Shown here one piece after another: positions 12,717 through 54,129 of a stretch of DNA of 64,000 nt (position 1 is its first letter; the number at the start of each line of letters is the position of its first letter). The notes beneath the pieces were generated by a model. The model saw only the letters and a program-made list of their open reading frames with translations, was not told the DNA's origin and ran no database searches. Both the position numbers and the translations under genes were made by a program. The stretch is taken from NCBI RefSeq assembly GCF_003334815.1, contig NZ_QOWO01000016.1; one strand, 5' to 3'. Source of the stretch: Escherichia coli (GTDB taxonomy: Bacteria; Pseudomonadota; Gammaproteobacteria; Enterobacterales; Enterobacteriaceae).

Positions 12717-13940
12717 ATGGCGCTGTCTGATGCGTGGTTGCGTTCAGTCGTTGGAAAGGAACGTGATAAGGTTTTGGTTAAATCCGATCGTGATGGTCTG
12801 TCTGTCAGAGTATCACCGAAAGGTCGCGTAGTGTTCCAATATCGTTATCAATGGGCAGGGAAAGGTGAGCGTCTTGATATCGGAACTTACCCGGCAACTG
12901 GATTAAAAGAGGCCAGAGAAGAAGTTATCCGTCTCCGTGGTGAACTTGAGTCAAACCGTAATCCACGATTGGTCAAGCAGGCTGAAAAACGAAAAGCTAC
13001 TGAAGCCATGACGGTAGAGTCTGTGATCCGTGCCTGGTATGAAGCATATTGTGTAAAAAATAAAAAAGGTTCTGAACAGATACTCCGCTCGTTTGAGCTG
13101 CACCTGTTCTCTAAAATCGGGAATATCCCTCACGATGCAGCTACATTGCATGATTGGTTAGAAGTCCTGGAGCCTCTTAGCACTAAGACTCCAGCAATAG
13201 CAGACCGATTGCTAATTAACGCAAAGCAGGCCCATGTCTGGGCGTATAAGAGAAAGCTCATTGAAACTCGCCCGCTGTCGGATATCACGGGTAAAGATAT
13301 GGATATCCGTAAAGGTCAGAAGAAACGGTTTCTGACACATGATGAAATTAAAATCCTTTATGCTGCGATCGATGGTTCTCGAATGGTTCCTAAATACCGG
13401 GCCTTCATTAAGCTATTGCTGCATTTTGGCTGCCGTAGTTCAGAGCTAATTACTGCCAGGGTGGACGATTTTGATTTCATTAATAAGGTATGGACTGTAC
13501 CACCAGAACGACATAAGACTGGAGAGATAACAGGCGAACCGCTAAAGAGGCCCATTATTGAACCGGTGGAGGAGCTTATAAAGAACGCTATCTCTATGAA
13601 CAATGGTTCCGATATGCTTTTTACTAAGGAAGGAAGCAGGGAACCCGTTGGTCGAACATCATTGCAGTCGCTGCCTTACAATTTAATGCAGTACGCATGG
13701 AGGCGTTTGGGGCATCAATTCCCTCATTGGTCTCTTCATGATTTGAGGCGAACAGCACGAACAAACTTTTCTGATCTTACTGCTCCTCATATTGCAGAAA
13801 TAATGCTCGGCCATAAACTGCCAGGGGTTTGGCAGGTTTATGACAAGAGCGATTATCTAGAAGAACAGCGTAAAGCATATCAGGCATGGTGGGAGAGAGT
13901 TGAATCGATCGTTACTTGTACTGGCCCAGAATCTACCTGA
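12717..13940 (+). CDS. int: Tyrosine integrase, P4-type
   Basis: 407 aa. The N-terminal arm-binding domain pattern is (DGLSVRVSPKGRVVFQYRY). Catalytic residues are R (GCRSSEL), H-x-x-R (HDLRRTART) and Y (VYDKSDY). Confidence 0.92.
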   Translation: MALSDAWLRSVVGKERDKVLVKSDRDGLSVRVSPKGRVVFQYRYQWAGKGERLDIGTYPATGLKEAREEVIRLRGELESNRNPRLVKQAEKRKATEAMTVESVIRAWYEAYCVKNKKGSEQILRSFELHLFSKIGNIPHDAATLHDWLEVLEPLSTKTPAIADRLLINAKQAHVWAYKRKLIETRPLSDITGKDMDIRKGQKKRFLTHDEIKILYAAIDGSRMVPKYRAFIKLLLHFGCRSSELITARVDDFDFINKVWTVPPERHKTGEITGEPLKRPIIEPVEELIKNAISMNNGSDMLFTKEGSREPVGRTSLQSLPYNLMQYAWRRLGHQFPHWSLHDLRRTARTNFSDLTAPHIAEIMLGHKLPGVWQVYDKSDYLEEQRKAYQAWWERVESIVTCTGPEST

Positions 13941-14190
13941 CAGCTTGCGTAGCCCTGACAGTCTGTTTTGAGCGAACAGTGGACATTTTCAATGGCATTC
14001 TTGAGTAGGTTACGCTTAGACCAGAAGTAAGAGGTGATAGAATTATCAACAATACATAAAACATAGGGGATCCTTATTGATTTATTGATCTTGACCAACT
14101 TATGTGATGCAGTATGTCTTTAACTTGTATTACTATTATCTTTATCTTGTTGTTTCTAATAAACTTATCTTATTTCAGAAAGGAGTTTTT

Positions 14191-15891
14191 ATGCATTTAG
14201 TCACGAAATCTTATTTCGATGCCTTTTGCAAAGCATTCGCTGCGCCCTATGAGGAGACCAAAAATTTTGAGGCGTTTGTGAACTATTGTGCTTTTTCAAA
14301 ATACTCAGGCGACAAAGTTGAGGTCAGTGATCTTGTGTATGAAGGCCCGGACCCTGGTATTGATGGCGCATTTTTATTTTTAGACGACAGAGCAATTTTT
14401 TCAACTGAAGAACTTCAGGAGATTTTCCAAAACTCACGTCGCGAGTTTCAAGTTTCATTAATATTCACGCAAGCTAAGTCATCGGAGAAGTGGAGCAAAC
14501 AGGAAATAGACTCTTACATTGCGTCAATAAGAGATTATCTTTCACCAGCGCCACAACAACCCCACAGTGAATATCTAGCGGACTTTAAAAAAATGTTCAA
14601 CTTGATATTTGCTAATATCGGCAGAGTCAAAAATGGCCTTCCAGACTTATACGCATATTTTTTTAGTGCTGCACAAAATACAGAGGCCAGAGAAATAAAA
14701 GCTGCATTTGCATCGGGTGAAAAAAGCTTAAAGTCACTCGGGTTTTCACATGAAACATCCTTCATTATGGCTCACAAAGACATGATTCATGAGCTTTGGC
14801 TTGCTGCGGAAGGTCCAATAGAAGCTAAACTTCCTACAATAGGCTATGCTCCATTCCCAGCGGCCCCTAATATTAATAATGCCTATGTAGCTACAGTCAA
14901 AGCTCGTAGTTTTATTGATTCTATACTTAAAGACAAAAATGGAAACCCTCGAAAAAAATTATTCGAAGAAAATGTTAGAGATTTTCTGGGAATTGATGGT
15001 GACGTAAATTCAGAAATTGCAGGAACACTAGATACTGATGGAAAAAAAGCAAGATTTGGTTTAATGAATAATGGAGTGACAATAGTTGCATCAAGCGTGA
15101 GGCCTGCAGGACAAGAAATTTTTATACGAGATTTTCAAATTGTTAATGGATGTCAAACGTCTAATGTTCTTATATCAAAAGACATTCAAGTAGATGAATC
15201 AGTTAGTTTAATGATTAAATTAATTGAAACCGATGAGCCAGCGATCCTTGATGACATTGTACGAGCTACGAATAGACAATCTAAAGTTGAAGATGCACAG
15301 TTCATTTCAACGCTAAAAAAATTAAGGGAATTAGAGCATTATTTTAATGCTAAAGGTGCTATTGAAGGAAATAAAATTTATTTTGAGAGAAGAAAGGGGC
15401 AGTATAGTTCAGAAAGTATAGCTCCAGTACGCATATTTGATATCAGAGAAGTTGCGCGAGCATATGCTGCTATTGTTATGATGAGACCAGATTATTCCAG
15501 TCGTTATCCAAATAGGTTAACTGGTGACTTACTTAATGAGGTTTTCTCTTCCGATGCCCTCGAGGATGATTATTATATATCTTGCTATTGCTTGTATAGG
15601 CTAAAGGCTCTTATCTCAAATAAGAGGTTTGATGGGAAGTATTCAAAATTACGCTGGCATATTCTAACTGCTGCGTCAAAATACTGTGGTAATAATTATA
15701 AGGTTTGGGGGTTCAAAAATAAAAATGAAGCTCTTCATAACTTATTCTCAATGAATGATGGGGAGTGGTTTGAAAAACTTGAGAGTTTAGTAAAAATAGC
15801 TATACCAGATCCGGATATTTCTCGAGACTTACTAAAGTCGCAGCCTTTAACATCAACGATTCTCAAAAGTGTTGATAGCGTACCTAAATAA
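14191..15891 (+). CDS. AIPR-family (abortive infection phage resistance) protein, putative
   Basis: 566 aa from the ATG preceded by aaaggag. The central ..NNGVTIVA..FQIVNGCQTS.. matches my memory of the AIPR family signature. It is very AT-rich relative to the flanks and is followed by the hairpin gggaagc-ttatt-gcttccc. Confidence 0.6.
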   Translation: MHLVTKSYFDAFCKAFAAPYEETKNFEAFVNYCAFSKYSGDKVEVSDLVYEGPDPGIDGAFLFLDDRAIFSTEELQEIFQNSRREFQVSLIFTQAKSSEKWSKQEIDSYIASIRDYLSPAPQQPHSEYLADFKKMFNLIFANIGRVKNGLPDLYAYFFSAAQNTEAREIKAAFASGEKSLKSLGFSHETSFIMAHKDMIHELWLAAEGPIEAKLPTIGYAPFPAAPNINNAYVATVKARSFIDSILKDKNGNPRKKLFEENVRDFLGIDGDVNSEIAGTLDTDGKKARFGLMNNGVTIVASSVRPAGQEIFIRDFQIVNGCQTSNVLISKDIQVDESVSLMIKLIETDEPAILDDIVRATNRQSKVEDAQFISTLKKLRELEHYFNAKGAIEGNKIYFERRKGQYSSESIAPVRIFDIREVARAYAAIVMMRPDYSSRYPNRLTGDLLNEVFSSDALEDDYYISCYCLYRLKALISNKRFDGKYSKLRWHILTAASKYCGNNYKVWGFKNKNEALHNLFSMNDGEWFEKLESLVKIAIPDPDISRDLLKSQPLTSTILKSVDSVPK

Positions 15892-22161: not shown

Positions 22162-23103
22162 ATGAGCACTAAATTAACCGGCTATGTATGGGATGGTTGC
22201 GCAGCGTCAGGCATGAAATTATCCAGCGTGGCAATTATGGCCCGCCTGGCTGATTTCAGTAATGACGAAGGTGTGTGCTGGCCATCAATTGAAACCATTG
22301 CCCGTCAGATTGGCGCGGGGATGAGTACCGTCAGGACGGCTATCGCACGGCTGGAAGCAGAAGGCTGGTTAACGCGTAAGGCGCGTCGCCAGGGTAACCG
22401 CAATGCGTCGAATGTTTATCAGCTTAACGTTGCGAAGCTTCAGGCAGCGGCATTTTCTCAACTGTCAGATTCTGACCCGTCAAAATCTGACGCATCAAAA
22501 TCTGACCCGTCAAAATTTGATGCGTCGAAATCTGGCAAAAAAGCGGGTTTTCACCCGTCAGAATCTGGCGGGGATCCGTCAGTAAAATCAAAACATGATC
22601 CGTCAGATAAAAAAACTTCTCGTCCGGACGCTTCGCAACCGGACACGCAGAAGGCTGAACAGGATTTTTTAACTCGCCATCCTGATGCGGTTGTATTCAG
22701 CCCTAAAAAGCGCCAGTGGGGGACGCAGGATGATTTGACCTGCGCACAGTGGCTCTGGAAAAAAATCATCGCCCTGTACGAGCATGCCGCCGAATGTGAC
22801 GGCGAGGTGGTTCGTCCCAAAGAACCGAACTGGACAGCCTGGGCAAACGAAATTCGCCTGATGTGTGTGCAGGATGGTCGTACTCACAAACAAATCTGCG
22901 AGATGTACAGCCGCGTCAGCCGCGATCCGTTCTGGTGCCGTAACGTGCTCAGCCCGTCGAAGCTGCGGGAAAAATGGGATGAGCTTTCCCTGCGCTTATC
23001 GCCGTCCGTCAGCACGTACACAGAAAAACGCGAAGACCCGTACTTCAAAGCCAGTTACGACAATGTGGACTACAGCCAGATCCCGGCAGGATTCAGGGGG
23101 TGA
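22162..23103 (+). CDS. Replication initiator (O-like; N-terminal winged-helix, internal iterons)
   Basis: 313 aa with an N-terminal HTH (WPSIETIARQIGAGMSTVRTAIARLEAEGWL) and a repeat-encoded DPSKSDASKSDPSKFDASKS linker. Its position after cII is as in lambdoid phages. Confidence 0.7.
   Translation: MSTKLTGYVWDGCAASGMKLSSVAIMARLADFSNDEGVCWPSIETIARQIGAGMSTVRTAIARLEAEGWLTRKARRQGNRNASNVYQLNVAKLQAAAFSQLSDSDPSKSDASKSDPSKFDASKSGKKAGFHPSESGGDPSVKSKHDPSDKKTSRPDASQPDTQKAEQDFLTRHPDAVVFSPKKRQWGTQDDLTCAQWLWKKIIALYEHAAECDGEVVRPKEPNWTAWANEIRLMCVQDGRTHKQICEMYSRVSRDPFWCRNVLSPSKLREKWDELSLRLSPSVSTYTEKREDPYFKASYDNVDYSQIPAGFRG
22462..22612. repeat. Iteron array (putative ori) inside the initiator gene
   Basis: About seven copies of ccgtca(a/g)aatctg(a/g)c-like units, for example cccgtcaaaatctgac, gcatcaaaatctgac, ccgtcaaaatttgat, gcgtcgaaatctggc, cccgtcagaatctggc. 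Confidence 0.65.
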
Positions 23104-49882: not shown

Positions 49883-49936
49883 TGCAGAAATAACGAGCAA
49901 ATGGCATCATTCCTGCTTTTGTCAGGGAGATCTACT

Positions 49937-50491
49937 ATGCTTATTGGCTATGTACGTGTGTCAACAAATGACCAGAACACAGATCTACAACGTAATGCGC
50001 TGAACTGTGCAGGATGCGAGCTGATTTTTGAAGACAAGATAAGCGGTACAAAGTCCGAAAGGCCGGGACTGAAAAAACTGCTCAGGACATTATCGGCAGG
50101 TGACACTCTGGTTGTCTGGAAGCTGGATCGGCTGGGGCGTAGTATGCGGCATCTGGTCATTCTGGTTGAGGAGTTGCGCGAACGTGGCGTTAATTTTCGC
50201 AGCCTGACGGATGCTATTGATACCAGCACACCGATGGGGCGTTTTTTCTTTCATGTGATGGGTGCCCTGGCTGAAATGGAACGAGAACTGATTGTTGAAC
50301 GAACAAAAGCTGGACTGGAAGCTGCTCGCGCACAGGGACGAATTGGGGGACGTCGTCCCAAACTTACACCAGAACAATGGGCGCAGGCCGGGCGATTAAT
50401 TGCATCAGGCGTTCCTCGCCAGAAGGTGGCGATCATCTATGATGTTGGTGTATCGACACTGTATAAGAAGTTTCCGGTCGGAGATAAATGA
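49937..50491 (+). CDS. pin: Serine DNA invertase (Pin/Gin/Cin/Hin family)
   Basis: 184 aa from MLIGYVRVSTNDQNTDLQRNAL with a C-terminal HTH. Confidence 0.93.
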   Translation: MLIGYVRVSTNDQNTDLQRNALNCAGCELIFEDKISGTKSERPGLKKLLRTLSAGDTLVVWKLDRLGRSMRHLVILVEELRERGVNFRSLTDAIDTSTPMGRFFFHVMGALAEMERELIVERTKAGLEAARAQGRIGGRRPKLTPEQWAQAGRLIASGVPRQKVAIIYDVGVSTLYKKFPVGDK

Positions 50492-50590
50492 AACCGCAGG
50501 CTCGTCGTATGCAAGAAAGTGCTGCGGCTGGCTGGTTAACTTCCGATAGTGAGAGTATTGAATGATTTCCAGTCGTTATCGATTTTACGT
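50489..50590. repeat. Direct repeat copy 1 (~102 bp)
   Basis: tgaaaccgcaggctcgtcgtatgcaag...gattttacgt. By my hand count it differs at about 7 positions from 53774-53875. It contains the hairpin ccgcag..ctgcgg. Confidence 0.85.
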
Positions 50591-50849
50591 ATTTTTTGCA
50601 TGAGATGATTTGAACGCCCTAGCACCAACCGTTCATGATTGCACGCCACTGTCTCTAGAACTGCTATGAGCATGAAGCCGCTGTTCAAACTAAGAATTTA
50701 TATGGCACTAACAGAAAAAATGTTACATATATGTTGAGCTTTAACGCAACATAGACATGTTCTATAGTTTGTGTCTCACCACCAGTTGAAAAAAAACGAA
50801 AATAGATTAACAATGTTCAGAAGAAACCTTCATAATAGAAGAGGTATAA

Positions 50850-51104
50850 ATGGGTAAGATTATTCGGTGGATGCTTTTTTTTGTCGGATTATTTTCCGTT
50901 GCATATTCAATATATAAATATCAACAATCTCCGCAGAGTTTATTTTACATAATCGGTGCTATAGGAACACTTTTATCTGCTACATGTGGTTTACTTGAGA
51001 TAAAAAGCAAGAAATCGAATGGCAGTATAACTGCTGGCGACAACTCAAATATCGTTGTCATTAATGGTTCAGAAAACACATCAAAAATAAAAAATAGAGG
51101 GTGA
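50850..51104 (+). CDS. Small 2-TM membrane protein with a hydrophilic GDNSN-motif tail (unknown function)
   Basis: 84 aa with SD gaggt and two hydrophobic helices. The tail is ...ITAGDNSNIVVINGSENTSKIKNRG. Very AT-rich. Confidence 0.6.
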   Translation: MGKIIRWMLFFVGLFSVAYSIYKYQQSPQSLFYIIGAIGTLLSATCGLLEIKSKKSNGSITAGDNSNIVVINGSENTSKIKNRG

Positions 51105-51106
51105 TT

Positions 51107-52042
51107 ATGTTTGATAAAGAGGTTAACTTAGGAGACAACTCAAACGTAGTAAAAACAGAAGGGAATAACAACACAACAATAATAAATAATTTTGATGAGA
51201 AGTTTATAGGTCACGTTGTAAGATCCATGCTTTATGAAAGTATGCCTTCCTTTCAAGAAGAAGCTAGAAAAAAGATAATTGCGTCAACTGATGAATACAT
51301 TAGAGAGCTAATATCTGAGTTAGTAATTCAAAAAACAGATGCAGATACATTAAACCAAAAACTATCAACGCCTGACGTTCAATACTCTCTTTTTGAATCA
51401 GCTAAATGTTTTGCAAAAAATCCAGAAAGAACAGCAAAATCAACTCTGTTAAATTTAGTTGTAAAAAAAATAAATGAATTGGATGGAGATCATGAAGAGC
51501 TTTCCTCTATCGATCTGGCAATAAACGTCGCTACAAAACTTAGCGTAAAGCAAATAAGGTATATATCTTTAATATACTATATTAAAGATATTGTAAAAAT
51601 ATCACAAGATAGTGCCGGCGCTTATTGCATAATAGATCCTTCAAAAGATACAACAGAAGAAGTTGACGATTTCTTTTTATTCCCAAATGATATAAAAAGG
51701 AACAAGCAGGATGTTTATGATCTTTATATCGATCTATATAACAATCAAATGGATGTTGTATTTAAAGATGAAGAGATTGGCCCAGTTGATTATAGTATGC
51801 TTATAGCATTGGGTTGTATCATTCAACCTGCATTCCCTCAGCGAACATTTGTACAAAATGTAAAGAAAAGAACAGGATTAGATTTAAACGACAGCGAACA
51901 AAAATTAAAGCTATCGACATTCATTGAGAAAATAGAAAAAGCTATAGAGATAGATTCTGTCGATTATATAGTATTAACTACGGTTGGTAGACAAATAGCT
52001 AACGCCTATATATCAACAAGAATGAGATTAGTTAACTTATAA
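51107..52042 (+). CDS. Uncharacterised 311-aa cytoplasmic protein, coupled to the 84-aa ORF
   Basis: ATG at 51107 (or GTG 51101, overlapping the upstream TGA). The N-terminus is ..VNLGDNSNVVKTEGNNNTTIINN. I see no catalytic motif I can recognise. Very AT-rich. Confidence 0.6.
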   Translation: MFDKEVNLGDNSNVVKTEGNNNTTIINNFDEKFIGHVVRSMLYESMPSFQEEARKKIIASTDEYIRELISELVIQKTDADTLNQKLSTPDVQYSLFESAKCFAKNPERTAKSTLLNLVVKKINELDGDHEELSSIDLAINVATKLSVKQIRYISLIYYIKDIVKISQDSAGAYCIIDPSKDTTEEVDDFFLFPNDIKRNKQDVYDLYIDLYNNQMDVVFKDEEIGPVDYSMLIALGCIIQPAFPQRTFVQNVKKRTGLDLNDSEQKLKLSTFIEKIEKAIEIDSVDYIVLTTVGRQIANAYISTRMRLVNL

Positions 52043-52063
52043 ATATCTCATATTTCTTCATCC

Positions 52064-52099
52064 AAGGTGGTGGCTTCATCATCCACCGCCTTCTTTTCT
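52064..52099 (+). terminator. Rho-independent terminator of the two-gene module
   Basis: aaggtggtgg-cttcatcat-ccaccgcctt followed by cttttct. Confidence 0.65.
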
Positions 52100-52103
52100 G
52101 CTC

Positions 52104-52265
52104 TTAAGAGTAGTGAACAAACCACTCGTCAGCAAACTCCCAAGTATCTTTCAGAGTCTCCTGAACAAAAGCCTTAGCAGAATCCTTATCTGCGGTGTAC
52201 GTAACAGGAAAATCATCGCTATGGTAGCTTTGACGCTCACCCCCATACCATAAAATATCAAGAGA
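52104..52265 (-). pseudogene. dinI-like remnant (C-terminal part only, no start codon)
   Basis: The minus frame reads ...[37 protein letters not shown]. About 100 nt are roughly 90 percent identical (hand count) to the 3' end of the intact copy at 53881-54129. Confidence 0.8.
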
Positions 52266-52445: not shown

Positions 52446-52805
52446 ATGTTAACGCCGTTTGGTAAGACAGTAAGAAAAATGCGCATAGACTTGGGGCTTA
52501 CGCTTAAAAGCATGGCTGAGGCTATGGGCATGACCTCGTCTTATCTTTCAGCGATCGAAACTGGTAAAAGGGCGGTCACTAAGCCCGTGCTTGATAGCAT
52601 CATTAGCTATTTTAATGCGGATGAAAAACAAAAAGAAAAGCTTATCAGTGCAGCTCGTGACTCTCAGCAGTCAGTAGAGATCAGCTTGTCAGGTAAGAAT
52701 GGCCACGCTCGTGAAGTCGCAATTGCGTTCGCTCGTAGTTTTGATGAATTAAATGAAGAAGACTTCCGTAATTTACGACAGATTTTGAATCGAAAACAGC
52801 AGTAG
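52446..52805 (+). CDS. XRE-family HTH regulator
   Basis: 119 aa with FGKTVRKMRIDLGLTLKSMAEAMGMTSSYLSAIETGKR. The direct repeat ctgaag-ta-ctgaag lies at 52406-52419 upstream. Confidence 0.8.
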   Translation: MLTPFGKTVRKMRIDLGLTLKSMAEAMGMTSSYLSAIETGKRAVTKPVLDSIISYFNADEKQKEKLISAARDSQQSVEISLSGKNGHAREVAIAFARSFDELNEEDFRNLRQILNRKQQ

Positions 52806-52813
52806 GAGGCGGC

Positions 52814-53335
52814 TTGAGCGGACAAGATTATCGTGTACCTCCGCAGAATCGTGAATCAATACGTTCTATCGTCACATCTCTGCGGAGCGCATTTGGTATT
52901 ACTGGGCTTAAATTCCCTGTAATGGAGGTAATTGAGTTCGCATTGCCTCAGTTGATCCCGGATTTTGAGTTCCACATTGGTGGCATGAAAGAAATGGGAG
53001 AAACGCATGGTCTTACGTACCCACAGGAACATTTATTGATTCTGCGCGAAGACATTTACGAAGGCGCTTTGAATGGGGTAGGGCGAGATAGGATGACTGC
53101 CGCGCATGAATTGGGTCATCTTCTTATGCACAGGAACATCGCATTTGCTCGTTCTGCCCCAGGGGTAAAAATCCGCCCTTTTGAGAGTAGTGAATGGCAA
53201 GCTAAATGTTTTAGTGGTGAGTTATTAGTGCCGGCTATGCATGTCAGTATTTTAAAAGGTATGACGGCTGAGGATGTTGCTAAGGCATGCGGAGTTTCAT
53301 TAGTGGCAGCGCGTTATCAGCTAGACAGAATGTAA
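52814..53335 (+). CDS. ImmA/IrrE-family zinc metallopeptidase
   Basis: 173 aa with a TTG start, the HEXXH motif AAHELGHLLMH, and pairing with an upstream XRE gene. Confidence 0.75.
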   Translation: MSGQDYRVPPQNRESIRSIVTSLRSAFGITGLKFPVMEVIEFALPQLIPDFEFHIGGMKEMGETHGLTYPQEHLLILREDIYEGALNGVGRDRMTAAHELGHLLMHRNIAFARSAPGVKIRPFESSEWQAKCFSGELLVPAMHVSILKGMTAEDVAKACGVSLVAARYQLDRM

Positions 53336-53773: not shown

Positions 53774-53875
53774 TGAAACCGCAGGCACGTCGTATGCAAG
53801 AACGTGCTGCGGCTGGCTGGTGAACTTCCGATAGTGCGAGTATTGAATGATTTCCAGCCGTTACAGATTTTACGT
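53774..53875. repeat. Direct repeat copy 2 (~102 bp), abutting the dinI-like stop codon
   Basis: See 50489-50590. Confidence 0.85.
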
Positions 53876-53880
53876 GCTAA

Positions 53881-54129
53881 TTAGTGAACAAACCACTCGT
53901 CAGCAGACTCCCAGGTATCTTTCAGAGTTTCCTGAACAAAAGTTTTAGCTGAATCTTTATCGGCGGTGCGCGTAACAGAAAGGCCATCGTTGCTGGTGGC
54001 TTTTACGATCACCTCTACATCGTCATAACGCTTACTGATGCGTCGAGTTAATTCTTCCTTTAACGCATCCACAGCACCGTTTGGCATTTTAGTCATTTTC
54101 TCTTTAGCTATGCAGATCTCAATACGCAT
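53881..54129 (-). CDS. dinI: DinI-family SOS-inducible protein
   Basis: 82 aa, [11 protein letters not shown]...[23 protein letters not shown], with LexA boxes in its promoter. Confidence 0.85.

Follow-up and report, generated by a model that had tools for sequence, protein, structure and literature searches.

Inside a prophage of Escherichia coli, on a 64,000-nucleotide (nt) stretch of contig NZ_QOWO01000016.1 (assembly GCF_003334815.1; this whole stretch is called the window below), lie two adjacent genes of the same orientation, open reading frame (ORF) 1 and ORF2, which encode a small membrane protein and a larger cytoplasmic protein (Table 1). They had been described from the sequence alone, in what we call the original prediction, as an uncharacterised two-gene module and a candidate new phage-defence or exclusion system. 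The stop codon of ORF1 (TGA, 51102-51104) is followed after a 2-nt gap by the ATG of ORF2 at 51107, and a GTG at 51101 stands in frame with this ATG; a start at the GTG would yield 313 instead of 311 amino acids, and the RefSeq annotation of ORF2 uses the ATG. Shine-Dalgarno sites of the GAGG type can be read from the sequence ahead of both starts, and translational coupling of the two ORFs is plausible because a GAGGG lies within the 3' end of ORF1. The module also ends in its own rho-independent terminator, in which positions 52064-52073 pair with 52083-52092 (folding energy -15.3 kcal/mol, z -4.8), a stability reached by none of 200 shuffled sequences; a consensus scanner missed it because its 9-nt loop exceeds the scanner limit of 8 nt. 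The G+C content of the module is 30-32%, as against 45-55% in the flanks, and drops from about 0.50 to 0.35 on entering the upstream region. Promoter-like hexamers occur upstream at 50741-50768, 50786-50814 and 50807-50836, in a number not above that of shuffled sequence. The arrangement of codons and reading frames, the ribosome-binding sites, the terminator and the AT-richness are thus as they had been predicted.

Both proteins have already been named. ORF1 is identical at 84 of 84 residues to WP_075861856.1 (a coding sequence in NZ_CM128598.1), and ORF2 at 311 of 311 residues to WP_087894771.1. A full-text search with the RefSeq accessions of this identical E. coli locus located the paper on PD-T2-1, a system named in July 2025, in which PD-T2-1A of ECOR03 is listed as WP_075861856.1 (Nagy, Gersabeck, Conte, Whiteley, bioRxiv 10.1101/2025.07.02.662641; PMC12236752). 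The accession printed there for PD-T2-1B, WP_08789477.1, is one digit short of WP_087894771.1, and the paper pairs this protein with RCR47253.1, the next accession after RCR47252.1 of PD-T2-1A (Nagy et al., bioRxiv 10.1101/2025.07.02.662641). The ECOR03 system has both proteins identical to those of the window, the same operon layout and a small transmembrane (TM) A protein, and on these sequences it is virtually certain that the module of the window is PD-T2-1, a two-gene antiphage system of E. coli. We refer to its proteins as A and B.

Table 1. Features of the PD-T2-1 module and its immediate surroundings (positions in the window)
Feature	Position	Strand	Details
PD-T2-1A (ORF1)	50850-51104	+	84 amino acids; proposed membrane effector
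PD-T2-1B (ORF2)	51107-52042	+	311 amino acids, cytoplasmic, Vpar_1526 family; proposed sensor
AT-rich upstream region, native promoter	50591-50849	+	begins directly 3' of the 102-nt repeat copy behind pin
Effector-side motif copy	51033-51089	+	residues 62-80 of A, AGDNSNIVVINGSENTSKI
Sensor-side motif copy	51128-51184	+	residues 8-26 of B, LGDNSNVVKTEGNNNTTII
Rho-independent terminator	52064-52101	+	10-bp stem, 9-nt loop, U-tract
dinI-like gene fragment	52111-52218	-	downstream edge of the PD-T2-1 cassette; context, outside the system

PD-T2-1 protects against phages T2, T6, T4 and T5, and protection was obtained with the operon under its own promoter (Nagy et al., bioRxiv 10.1101/2025.07.02.662641). 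Four phage proteins, T7 gp17 and T2 gp37, gp34 and gp12, each block growth only in the presence of PD-T2-1, and all four are trimeric beta-helical fibre proteins; transposon insertions in the operon freed ECOR03 from the toxicity of T7 gp17 (Nagy et al., bioRxiv 10.1101/2025.07.02.662641). The authors termed sequence and structure analysis of both proteins uninformative, found no mechanism, and welcome a renaming of the system once its mechanism is known (Nagy et al., bioRxiv 10.1101/2025.07.02.662641). Nowhere in the main text of that paper do the terms motif, amyloid or prophage appear; no further mention of PD-T2-1 was found in the searchable literature, and nothing useful was found there under the family names LPO_1073, Vpar_1526 and PF28206. 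The published protection and trigger-dependent growth inhibition of identical proteins fit the earlier proposal of a phage-defence module of the abortive-infection type. The description of the system as new and uncharacterised has to be given up, since identical genes had been published as PD-T2-1 in 2025. As a defence system the module is already known; the mechanistic lead described below is new as far as the searchable literature shows.

This lead is a short motif that the two proteins share. Residues 62-80 of A (AGDNSNIVVINGSENTSKI) and residues 8-26 of B (LGDNSNVVKTEGNNNTTII) align locally with a score of 60, compared with a mean of 21 and a 95th percentile of 30 for residue-shuffled tails from 44 pairs, and among 44 sensors the tail of the window's A finds its best match in its own B. 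MAFFT aligned ORF1 tails onto the ORF2 N-terminus unprompted. The likeness is also visible in the DNA, where the copies match at 13 of 15 bases over 15-nt stretches, and the shared motif of the original prediction is therefore real at both levels. Among 16 homologues of B with at least 25% identity, G9, V15 and I26 of the motif are invariant and D10, T17, G19 and N22 nearly so. In the AlphaFold2 monomer model, residues 1-27 of B have a predicted local distance difference test (pLDDT) score below 50, and both motif copies score 21-34 in the model of P0011, a database protein that reads as a fusion of A and B. Low pLDDT is weak evidence and no proof of disorder, and these models suggest only weakly that the motif may be unstructured in the resting monomers. 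The wider-family consensus, on both the tail and the sensor side, is Q-x-V-G-[DN]-[NG]-S-x-[AG]-[IV]-Q-[AV]-G-[GR]-[DN]-[VI]-x-[IV]; tail cores consist of 54% G/N/Q/S/T and 25% V/I/L/A, with very few aromatic residues or prolines. A relaxed G-phi-Q-phi-G-like centre is present in 26/44 tails and 15/44 sensors of the wider family, and G-phi-Q-phi-G is the signature of the RHIM, PP and BASS3 amyloid motifs (Dyrka et al., bioRxiv 10.1101/2020.01.06.895854). A hidden Markov model (HMM) of the PD-T2-1-type motif was also run against all T7 proteins including gp17, and every score was below 2 bits; residues 352-370 of gp17 (GGNIQLVVNGQIITQGG) resemble the tail of A (GDNSNIVVINGSENT) by eye, a likeness that is probably due to chance, given these scores.

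The pairing of a small TM gene with a B-type gene extends well beyond the window. Through a sub-alignment of 12 family sequences, 76 wider-family loci were taken from metagenomes and IMG/VR, and 70 of them have a co-oriented small ORF with 1-3 hydrophobic segments that ends beside the sensor start. The remaining six comprise one TM-fused and two HNH-like-fused proteins, two loci cut by a contig end and one whose TM segment lies just below threshold. Every intact homologue whose contig was read has a small TM gene directly 5' of it, so that the linkage of the pair, which the original prediction had proposed to survey, is a property of the family. Close relatives (at least 34% identity) in Citrobacter, Atlantibacter, Providencia, Cronobacter, Kluyvera, Pantoea and Commensalibacter keep an upstream TM gene of 82-95 amino acids with the same tail motif, and in a decayed Pantoea copy the TM partner has been lost.

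The tails of the TM proteins carry the motif subtype of their own partner sensor. Matched pairs of tail and sensor include GKNSSGIQVGGNLTIG and GDNSSAIQVAGNATIG, GDNSTAYQSNGDMNIG and GDNSAAYQSQGSMTINNG, and SGNDSININSGRDTKL and AGNNSENINSGRDTSI, while the matched subtypes include GDNSNxVV..G..NT, NSxAYQxxRDINI, SxGIQAGRDxxV, NVTQVGGNV and NININSGRDT. Over 44 non-redundant pairs the mean score was 52.1 for cognate and 32.6 for non-cognate combinations, an excess (z 13) that 20,000 permutations of the partners never reached; in 14 of the 44 pairs the cognate partner ranked first, and in 24 it was among the top three. Independent drift from a single duplication cannot yield such an excess, which therefore points to co-evolution or repeated homogenisation, and the motif is, judging by these sequences, a family-wide co-evolving sensor-effector element. 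Of the two origins suggested for the motif beforehand, gene fission is not borne out, given that cognate motifs stay more alike and that the fusion P0011 looks like the product of a 1-nt frameshift; the alternative of exchangeable N-terminal modules fares better, in that it comes nearer to the family pattern. P0011 (404 amino acids; Logan SRR28819988 contig L007, 76-1290) was considered as a true A-B fusion and rejected, a 1-nt indel in an A-run being likely because the +2 frame at the junction reads DKNKTRVGK and a stop codon, which is the usual tail and its end. The AlphaFold2 model of P0011, taken as a substitute for the A-B complex, was uninformative on pairing, with both motif copies disordered.

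In A, hydrophobic segments at about residues 4-22 and 31-49 are followed by a Lys-rich stretch and then by the C-terminal tail. The best 19-residue Kyte-Doolittle windows score 1.66 (from residue 4) and 1.93 (from residue 31), and the AlphaFold2 model of the homologue P0011 has two TM helices, in agreement with the two hydrophobic helices originally noticed. Lys/Arg residues flank the N-terminus and KSKK stands behind the second hydrophobic stretch, and A is therefore predicted to be a hairpin whose N-terminus and C-terminal tail both face the cytoplasm. No match to A was found in the Pfam-A copy searched or among the PADLOC models. An A-type gene of 84 amino acids on the Pantoea sp. X85 megaplasmid NZ_CP121109.1 (5747-6001) is missing from the PLSDB gene table. 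Small genes of this type may thus go unannotated, and their pairing with Vpar_1526 proteins could therefore be hidden.

The larger protein, B, matches the NCBIfam model NF045477 (LPO_1073/Vpar_1526), scoring 85.9 bits where the cutoff is 45 (E 3.3e-24). This was the sole solid match in the profile searches that were run on both proteins. Neither protein had any match in the Pfam-A copy searched, in keeping with the absence of a family hallmark noted at the outset; B homologues carry the precomputed Pfam family PF28206, and B went without a Pfam match because PF28206 is absent from that copy. Matches of the module proteins in PHROGs were to families of unknown function only. The PADLOC model PDC-S47 (PDLC05026) did not match ORF2 of the window at E <=1. 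In PADLOC-DB v2.0.0 the same candidate model is matched by 28 of 80 wider-family proteins (best E 2e-11), so that the family was already on record as a candidate for defence; the PDC-S47 matches inspected span only a short N-terminal stretch of the family proteins.

The wider Vpar_1526 family comprises 664 cluster representatives in an exhaustive HMMER search at E <=1e-3. Among the 150 matches listed, most are about 260-350 amino acids long, and most have a G/N/Q-rich stretch of about 20 residues ahead of the first conserved helix. The PD-T2-1B subfamily is homologous to the wider family over its full length (hhalign 99.9%, E 6e-35). The AlphaFold2 model of B (pLDDT 82, predicted template-modelling score 0.77) is helical and includes one sheet of five strands (residues 164-199). 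Family-wide, the profile matches lie mostly over positions 5-165, from which it follows that the N-terminal helical part (about residues 30-165) is conserved while the C-terminal half, with its small beta-sheet, is more variable; such variability fits, as expected, a recognition surface. B has no nucleoside triphosphatase (NTPase) domain and no repeat domain, and a structure search among solved structures and viral models found no relative of its fold. Family members occur in phages, prophages and islands across many phyla. The neighbours of 19 non-redundant family loci include integrases, terminases, an endolysin, RusA, anti-repressors and Zot, and also an AAA_15 ATPase, a pPIWI-associated nuclease and plain housekeeping genes. 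Of the individual loci, one lies within the head module of a phage, one between terminase and lysis genes, one on a small integrase-Rep element and one behind holin and amidase genes. Among isolated phages, a tblastn search with ORF2, P0042 and P0056 against GenBank phage records gave no match.

The position of A can be taken by other domains. Among the relatives, a DUF4062 domain can stand at the N-terminus in place of the TM partner (Pfam E 1.5e-8), a family described in a 2026 preprint as TIR-like NADases. An N-terminal Mrr_cat match also occurs there, but it is weak and below the cutoff (E 0.006). Some relatives have an HNH-like CxxC...H domain, assigned by eye and without any Pfam match, and in others a TM segment is fused at the N-terminus. 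The motif is absent from the Mrr-like and DUF4062 fusions. A constant Vpar_1526 body joined to swappable killing modules argues that B is the sensor or regulator and A the effector, and we consider these roles, sensor for B and membrane effector for A, which the original prediction had already proposed, to be probable. A recurring N-terminal NKEW[VI]FSG[IV]G was also observed in one class of partner and fused-TM proteins (P0064, P0158, P0162; L008, L023, L024, L027), which suggests a distinct single-TM module that may be reused across the family.

Taken together, these observations can be assembled into a model of how PD-T2-1 might act. The folded body of B would respond, directly or indirectly, to tail-fibre proteins made late in infection. 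A would sit in the inner membrane as a small hairpin with both ends in the cytoplasm, where its last 20 or so residues and the first 25 or so of B would carry the same G/N/S-rich, beta-prone motif, unstructured at rest. Once activated, probably by oligomerisation, B would stack its N-terminal motifs in register, and the stacked motifs would recruit or template matching tails of A. Clustered A would then damage the membrane, and the infected cell would halt its growth before phage progeny are complete, that is, by abortive infection. That the motif is a homotypic coupling device is, in our estimate, moderately likely, and the whole explanation, up to and including this homotypic coupling, has on our analysis a slightly better than even chance of being right. 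That the coupling would be amyloid-like templating rather than a stable contact is more tentative, and falls short of an even chance. One could go further and suppose that the beta-helical tail fibres that act as triggers may themselves directly nucleate the stacking of the motif.

Several points weigh against this model. Fibrils, oligomerisation of B and membrane damage by A are all putative elements of it. The AlphaFold2 model of the fused homologue P0011 leaves the motif copies unpaired, and the published AlphaFold3 runs on A, B and gp17 gave interface predicted template-modelling scores of <=0.5 and found no contact (Nagy et al., bioRxiv 10.1101/2025.07.02.662641). The known architecture of amyloid signalling is only half matched, as B falls outside the NLR/STAND proteins and A outside the Bell/HeLo domains. 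A strict RHIM tetrad is rare (3/44 tails and 1/44 sensors), and the PD-T2-1 subfamily, with V or K in place of the central Gln, is the least RHIM-like subtype. The 44 pairs are phylogenetically related, so that independent co-variation events number about 6-8 subtypes, far below 44. One or two copies of the motif persist in the HNH-like and TM fusions, where a motif serving purely as an adaptor between proteins should not be needed. Lastly, A was described with a single predicted TM segment (Nagy et al., bioRxiv 10.1101/2025.07.02.662641), as against the two hydrophobic segments seen here.

The strongest rival to homotypic stacking is a static docking of the two proteins, in which a small constitutive beta-sheet zipper tethers B to A at the membrane, so that the two would amount to a split membrane protein, and sensing proceeds by conformational change in a complex formed beforehand, with neither templating nor polymerisation. 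Pair linkage and co-variation would fit such a stable interface equally well, and the relatives fused to a TM segment or an HNH-like domain retain the motif region as a linker, where it could have a structural role within one polypeptide. A heterotypic interface, however, needs complementary sequences, and near-identical ones are seen; stacking is preferred over docking because selection keeps the copies similar and not complementary, and near-identical copies are what in-register parallel beta stacking predicts. Moreover, both motif copies are predicted to be disordered, neither AlphaFold2 nor the published AlphaFold3 runs gave a confident A-B contact, and the motif is missing entirely from the Mrr-like and DUF4062 fusions, all of which leaves docking unlikely, though the most serious of the alternatives. 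It could also be that both motifs bind the same third partner, an unassembled fibre protomer or its chaperone, and that the trigger bridges or cross-seeds A and B. The four published triggers are all fibre proteins of one structural kind, such fibres contain G/N-rich beta-strand elements of the motif's kind, and subtypes differ by lineage, as expected if they tracked variable phage ligands. We nevertheless hold a shared ligand to be improbable: the motif HMM finds nothing of its kind in T7, the published AlphaFold3 co-folding was negative, and a single motif subtype answers four very different fibre proteins.

Two further explanations deny either the signalling or the killing. If the system did not act by abortive infection, it might serve superinfection exclusion, lysis timing or another envelope-acting accessory function of the prophage that leaves the host alive; a small membrane protein carried as prophage cargo would suit this, and the accessible text of the paper does not mention a culture collapse that depends on the multiplicity of infection (Nagy et al., bioRxiv 10.1101/2025.07.02.662641). 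Against it stand the single cytoplasmic phage proteins that, together with PD-T2-1, block colony formation, and so imply a toxicity triggered from inside the cell, as well as the relatives with nuclease or NADase-type domains at the effector position, and we regard it as very improbable. Least credible of all is that the likeness of the two motifs is a functionless relic, the trace of a junction duplication or of gene fission. The close match of the DNA copies and the reading of P0011 as an A-B fusion speak for such a relic, but P0011 is best explained by its frameshift, and the motif is kept in pairs down to about 25% identity, with cognate copies more alike than non-cognate ones. The preferred reading thus remains that of homotypic coupling between a sensor and a membrane effector.

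Bab/Agp of E. coli ECOR25 is the sole worked-out bacterial system with this layout; its BASS11 motif becomes amyloid on infection by T5 and activates cell death (bioRxiv 10.1101/2024.11.07.622273). Like PD-T2-1, it has adjacent genes with a motif of about 20 residues at the C-terminal end of its small, membrane-targeting effector and at the sensor N-terminus, and is found in prophages (in its case in prophage defence hotspots); it is likewise an abortive-infection system. Unlike PD-T2-1A, which is a TM hairpin, Bab is a Bell-type helical domain; the motif of PD-T2-1 differs, judged by the few named BASS11 residues (I87-G88-S89-V90, Q92, D99, N100), and amyloid has been demonstrated for Bab/Agp, whereas for PD-T2-1 it is inferred. 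The Bell/NLR pairs of filamentous bacteria, with BASS1-10 motifs, and the fungal pair HET-S/NWD2 also place the motif at the effector C-terminus and the receptor N-terminus, with a higher likeness between cognate partners (bioRxiv 10.1101/2020.01.06.895854). All-in-one fusions are a further point of likeness, and the G-phi-Q-phi-G-like centre of the wider Vpar_1526 motif recalls RHIM, PP and BASS3. In contrast to Bell/NLR systems, the Vpar_1526 receptor is without an NB-ARC/NACHT NTPase or repeats and its effector is an integral membrane protein; Bell/NLR systems belong to multicellular lineages, while Vpar_1526 proteins come from unicellular Proteobacteria and Firmicutes and from phages. In the subfamily of the window, moreover, the central Gln of the wider consensus has been lost. 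PDC-S47 of PADLOC is apparently a single-gene candidate (the "S" in its name), without a TM partner or motif. CBASS and Pycsar effectors are short proteins with 1-4 TM segments, encoded beside a sensor or signal generator, which probably kill by disrupting the membrane when clustered or activated. Binding of a nucleotide second messenger to their ligand-binding domain turns them on. Unlike these effectors, PD-T2-1A has only a tail of about 35 residues and no such domain.

The prophage that carries the module spans from an integrase gene (12717-13940), with a host HAD-family (yjjG-like) gene on its left side, to a dinI gene adjoining prfC (54322 onward). No direct repeat joining the integrase end to the prfC end, as expected of attachment sites, was found at the settings used. 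The module is preceded by tail-fibre genes, an invertible segment and the gene of a Pin-type invertase (49901-50491); on its 3' side follow the dinI fragment, a helix-turn-helix (HTH) and ImmA/IrrE pair (52446-53335) and a full dinI (53881-54129). A 102-nt direct repeat (50489-50590 and 53774-53875, 93% identical) and the duplicated piece of dinI, in which the fragment is 87% identical to positions 53882-53989 of the full gene, point to nested cassette insertions between pin and dinI. The order pin, PD-T2-1 pair, intact dinI and prfC recurs in four E. coli genomes, in which the HTH/ImmA pair is absent; of 5,426 complete E. coli genomes, 4 have PD-T2-1. Strain 510016 of E. coli has other cargo in this slot, namely a reverse transcriptase and a SLATT gene disrupted by IS1. 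The module therefore occupies a variable cargo or defence slot near, not at, the prophage end: the cargo slot of the original prediction stands, but its placement at the extreme right end does not, since the dinI fragment, the HTH/ImmA cassette and the full dinI separate the module from prfC.

Other genes of the prophage may also bear on defence. The HTH protein (119 amino acids) and the ImmA/IrrE M78 peptidase (173 amino acids), both on the plus strand, match capH and capP of PADLOC (E 3.6e-10 and 4.9e-11, respectively), and the pair may be a DNA-damage-responsive regulator for neighbouring cargo; in many E. coli genomes it is found in the absence of PD-T2-1, beside dinI or at the integrase end of another prophage. 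Next to the integrase of the prophage described here, and thus at its left end, a gene on the plus strand (14104-15891) encodes a 595-amino-acid protein of the AIPR family (PF10592, E 1e-43), which, judged by the family name, may be a second cargo gene for abortive infection. At 22450-22572, inside a replication-gene ORF (22162-23103), about eight units of 15 nt in tandem (TCAAAATCTGACSCG-like) resemble the iterons of a replication origin.

The window thus adds one more genomic instance of a rare and already named system. Its main interest is mechanistic: the discoverers called on others to work out how PD-T2-1 acts, and the motif offers a lead that can be tested cheaply. Beyond PD-T2-1 itself, we raise as a possibility, with some doubt, that this system and much of the Vpar_1526 family form a second and far more widespread class of amyloid-type immune signalling in bacteria, in which an N-terminal, partly RHIM-like motif of about 20 residues on a non-NLR sensor templates the identical tail of a very small integral-membrane executioner. 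If this is true, amyloid-type immune signalling in bacteria would extend beyond NLR and Bell proteins and beyond multicellular bacteria, and terminal motifs matched between partners would become a search key for new pairs of sensor and effector.

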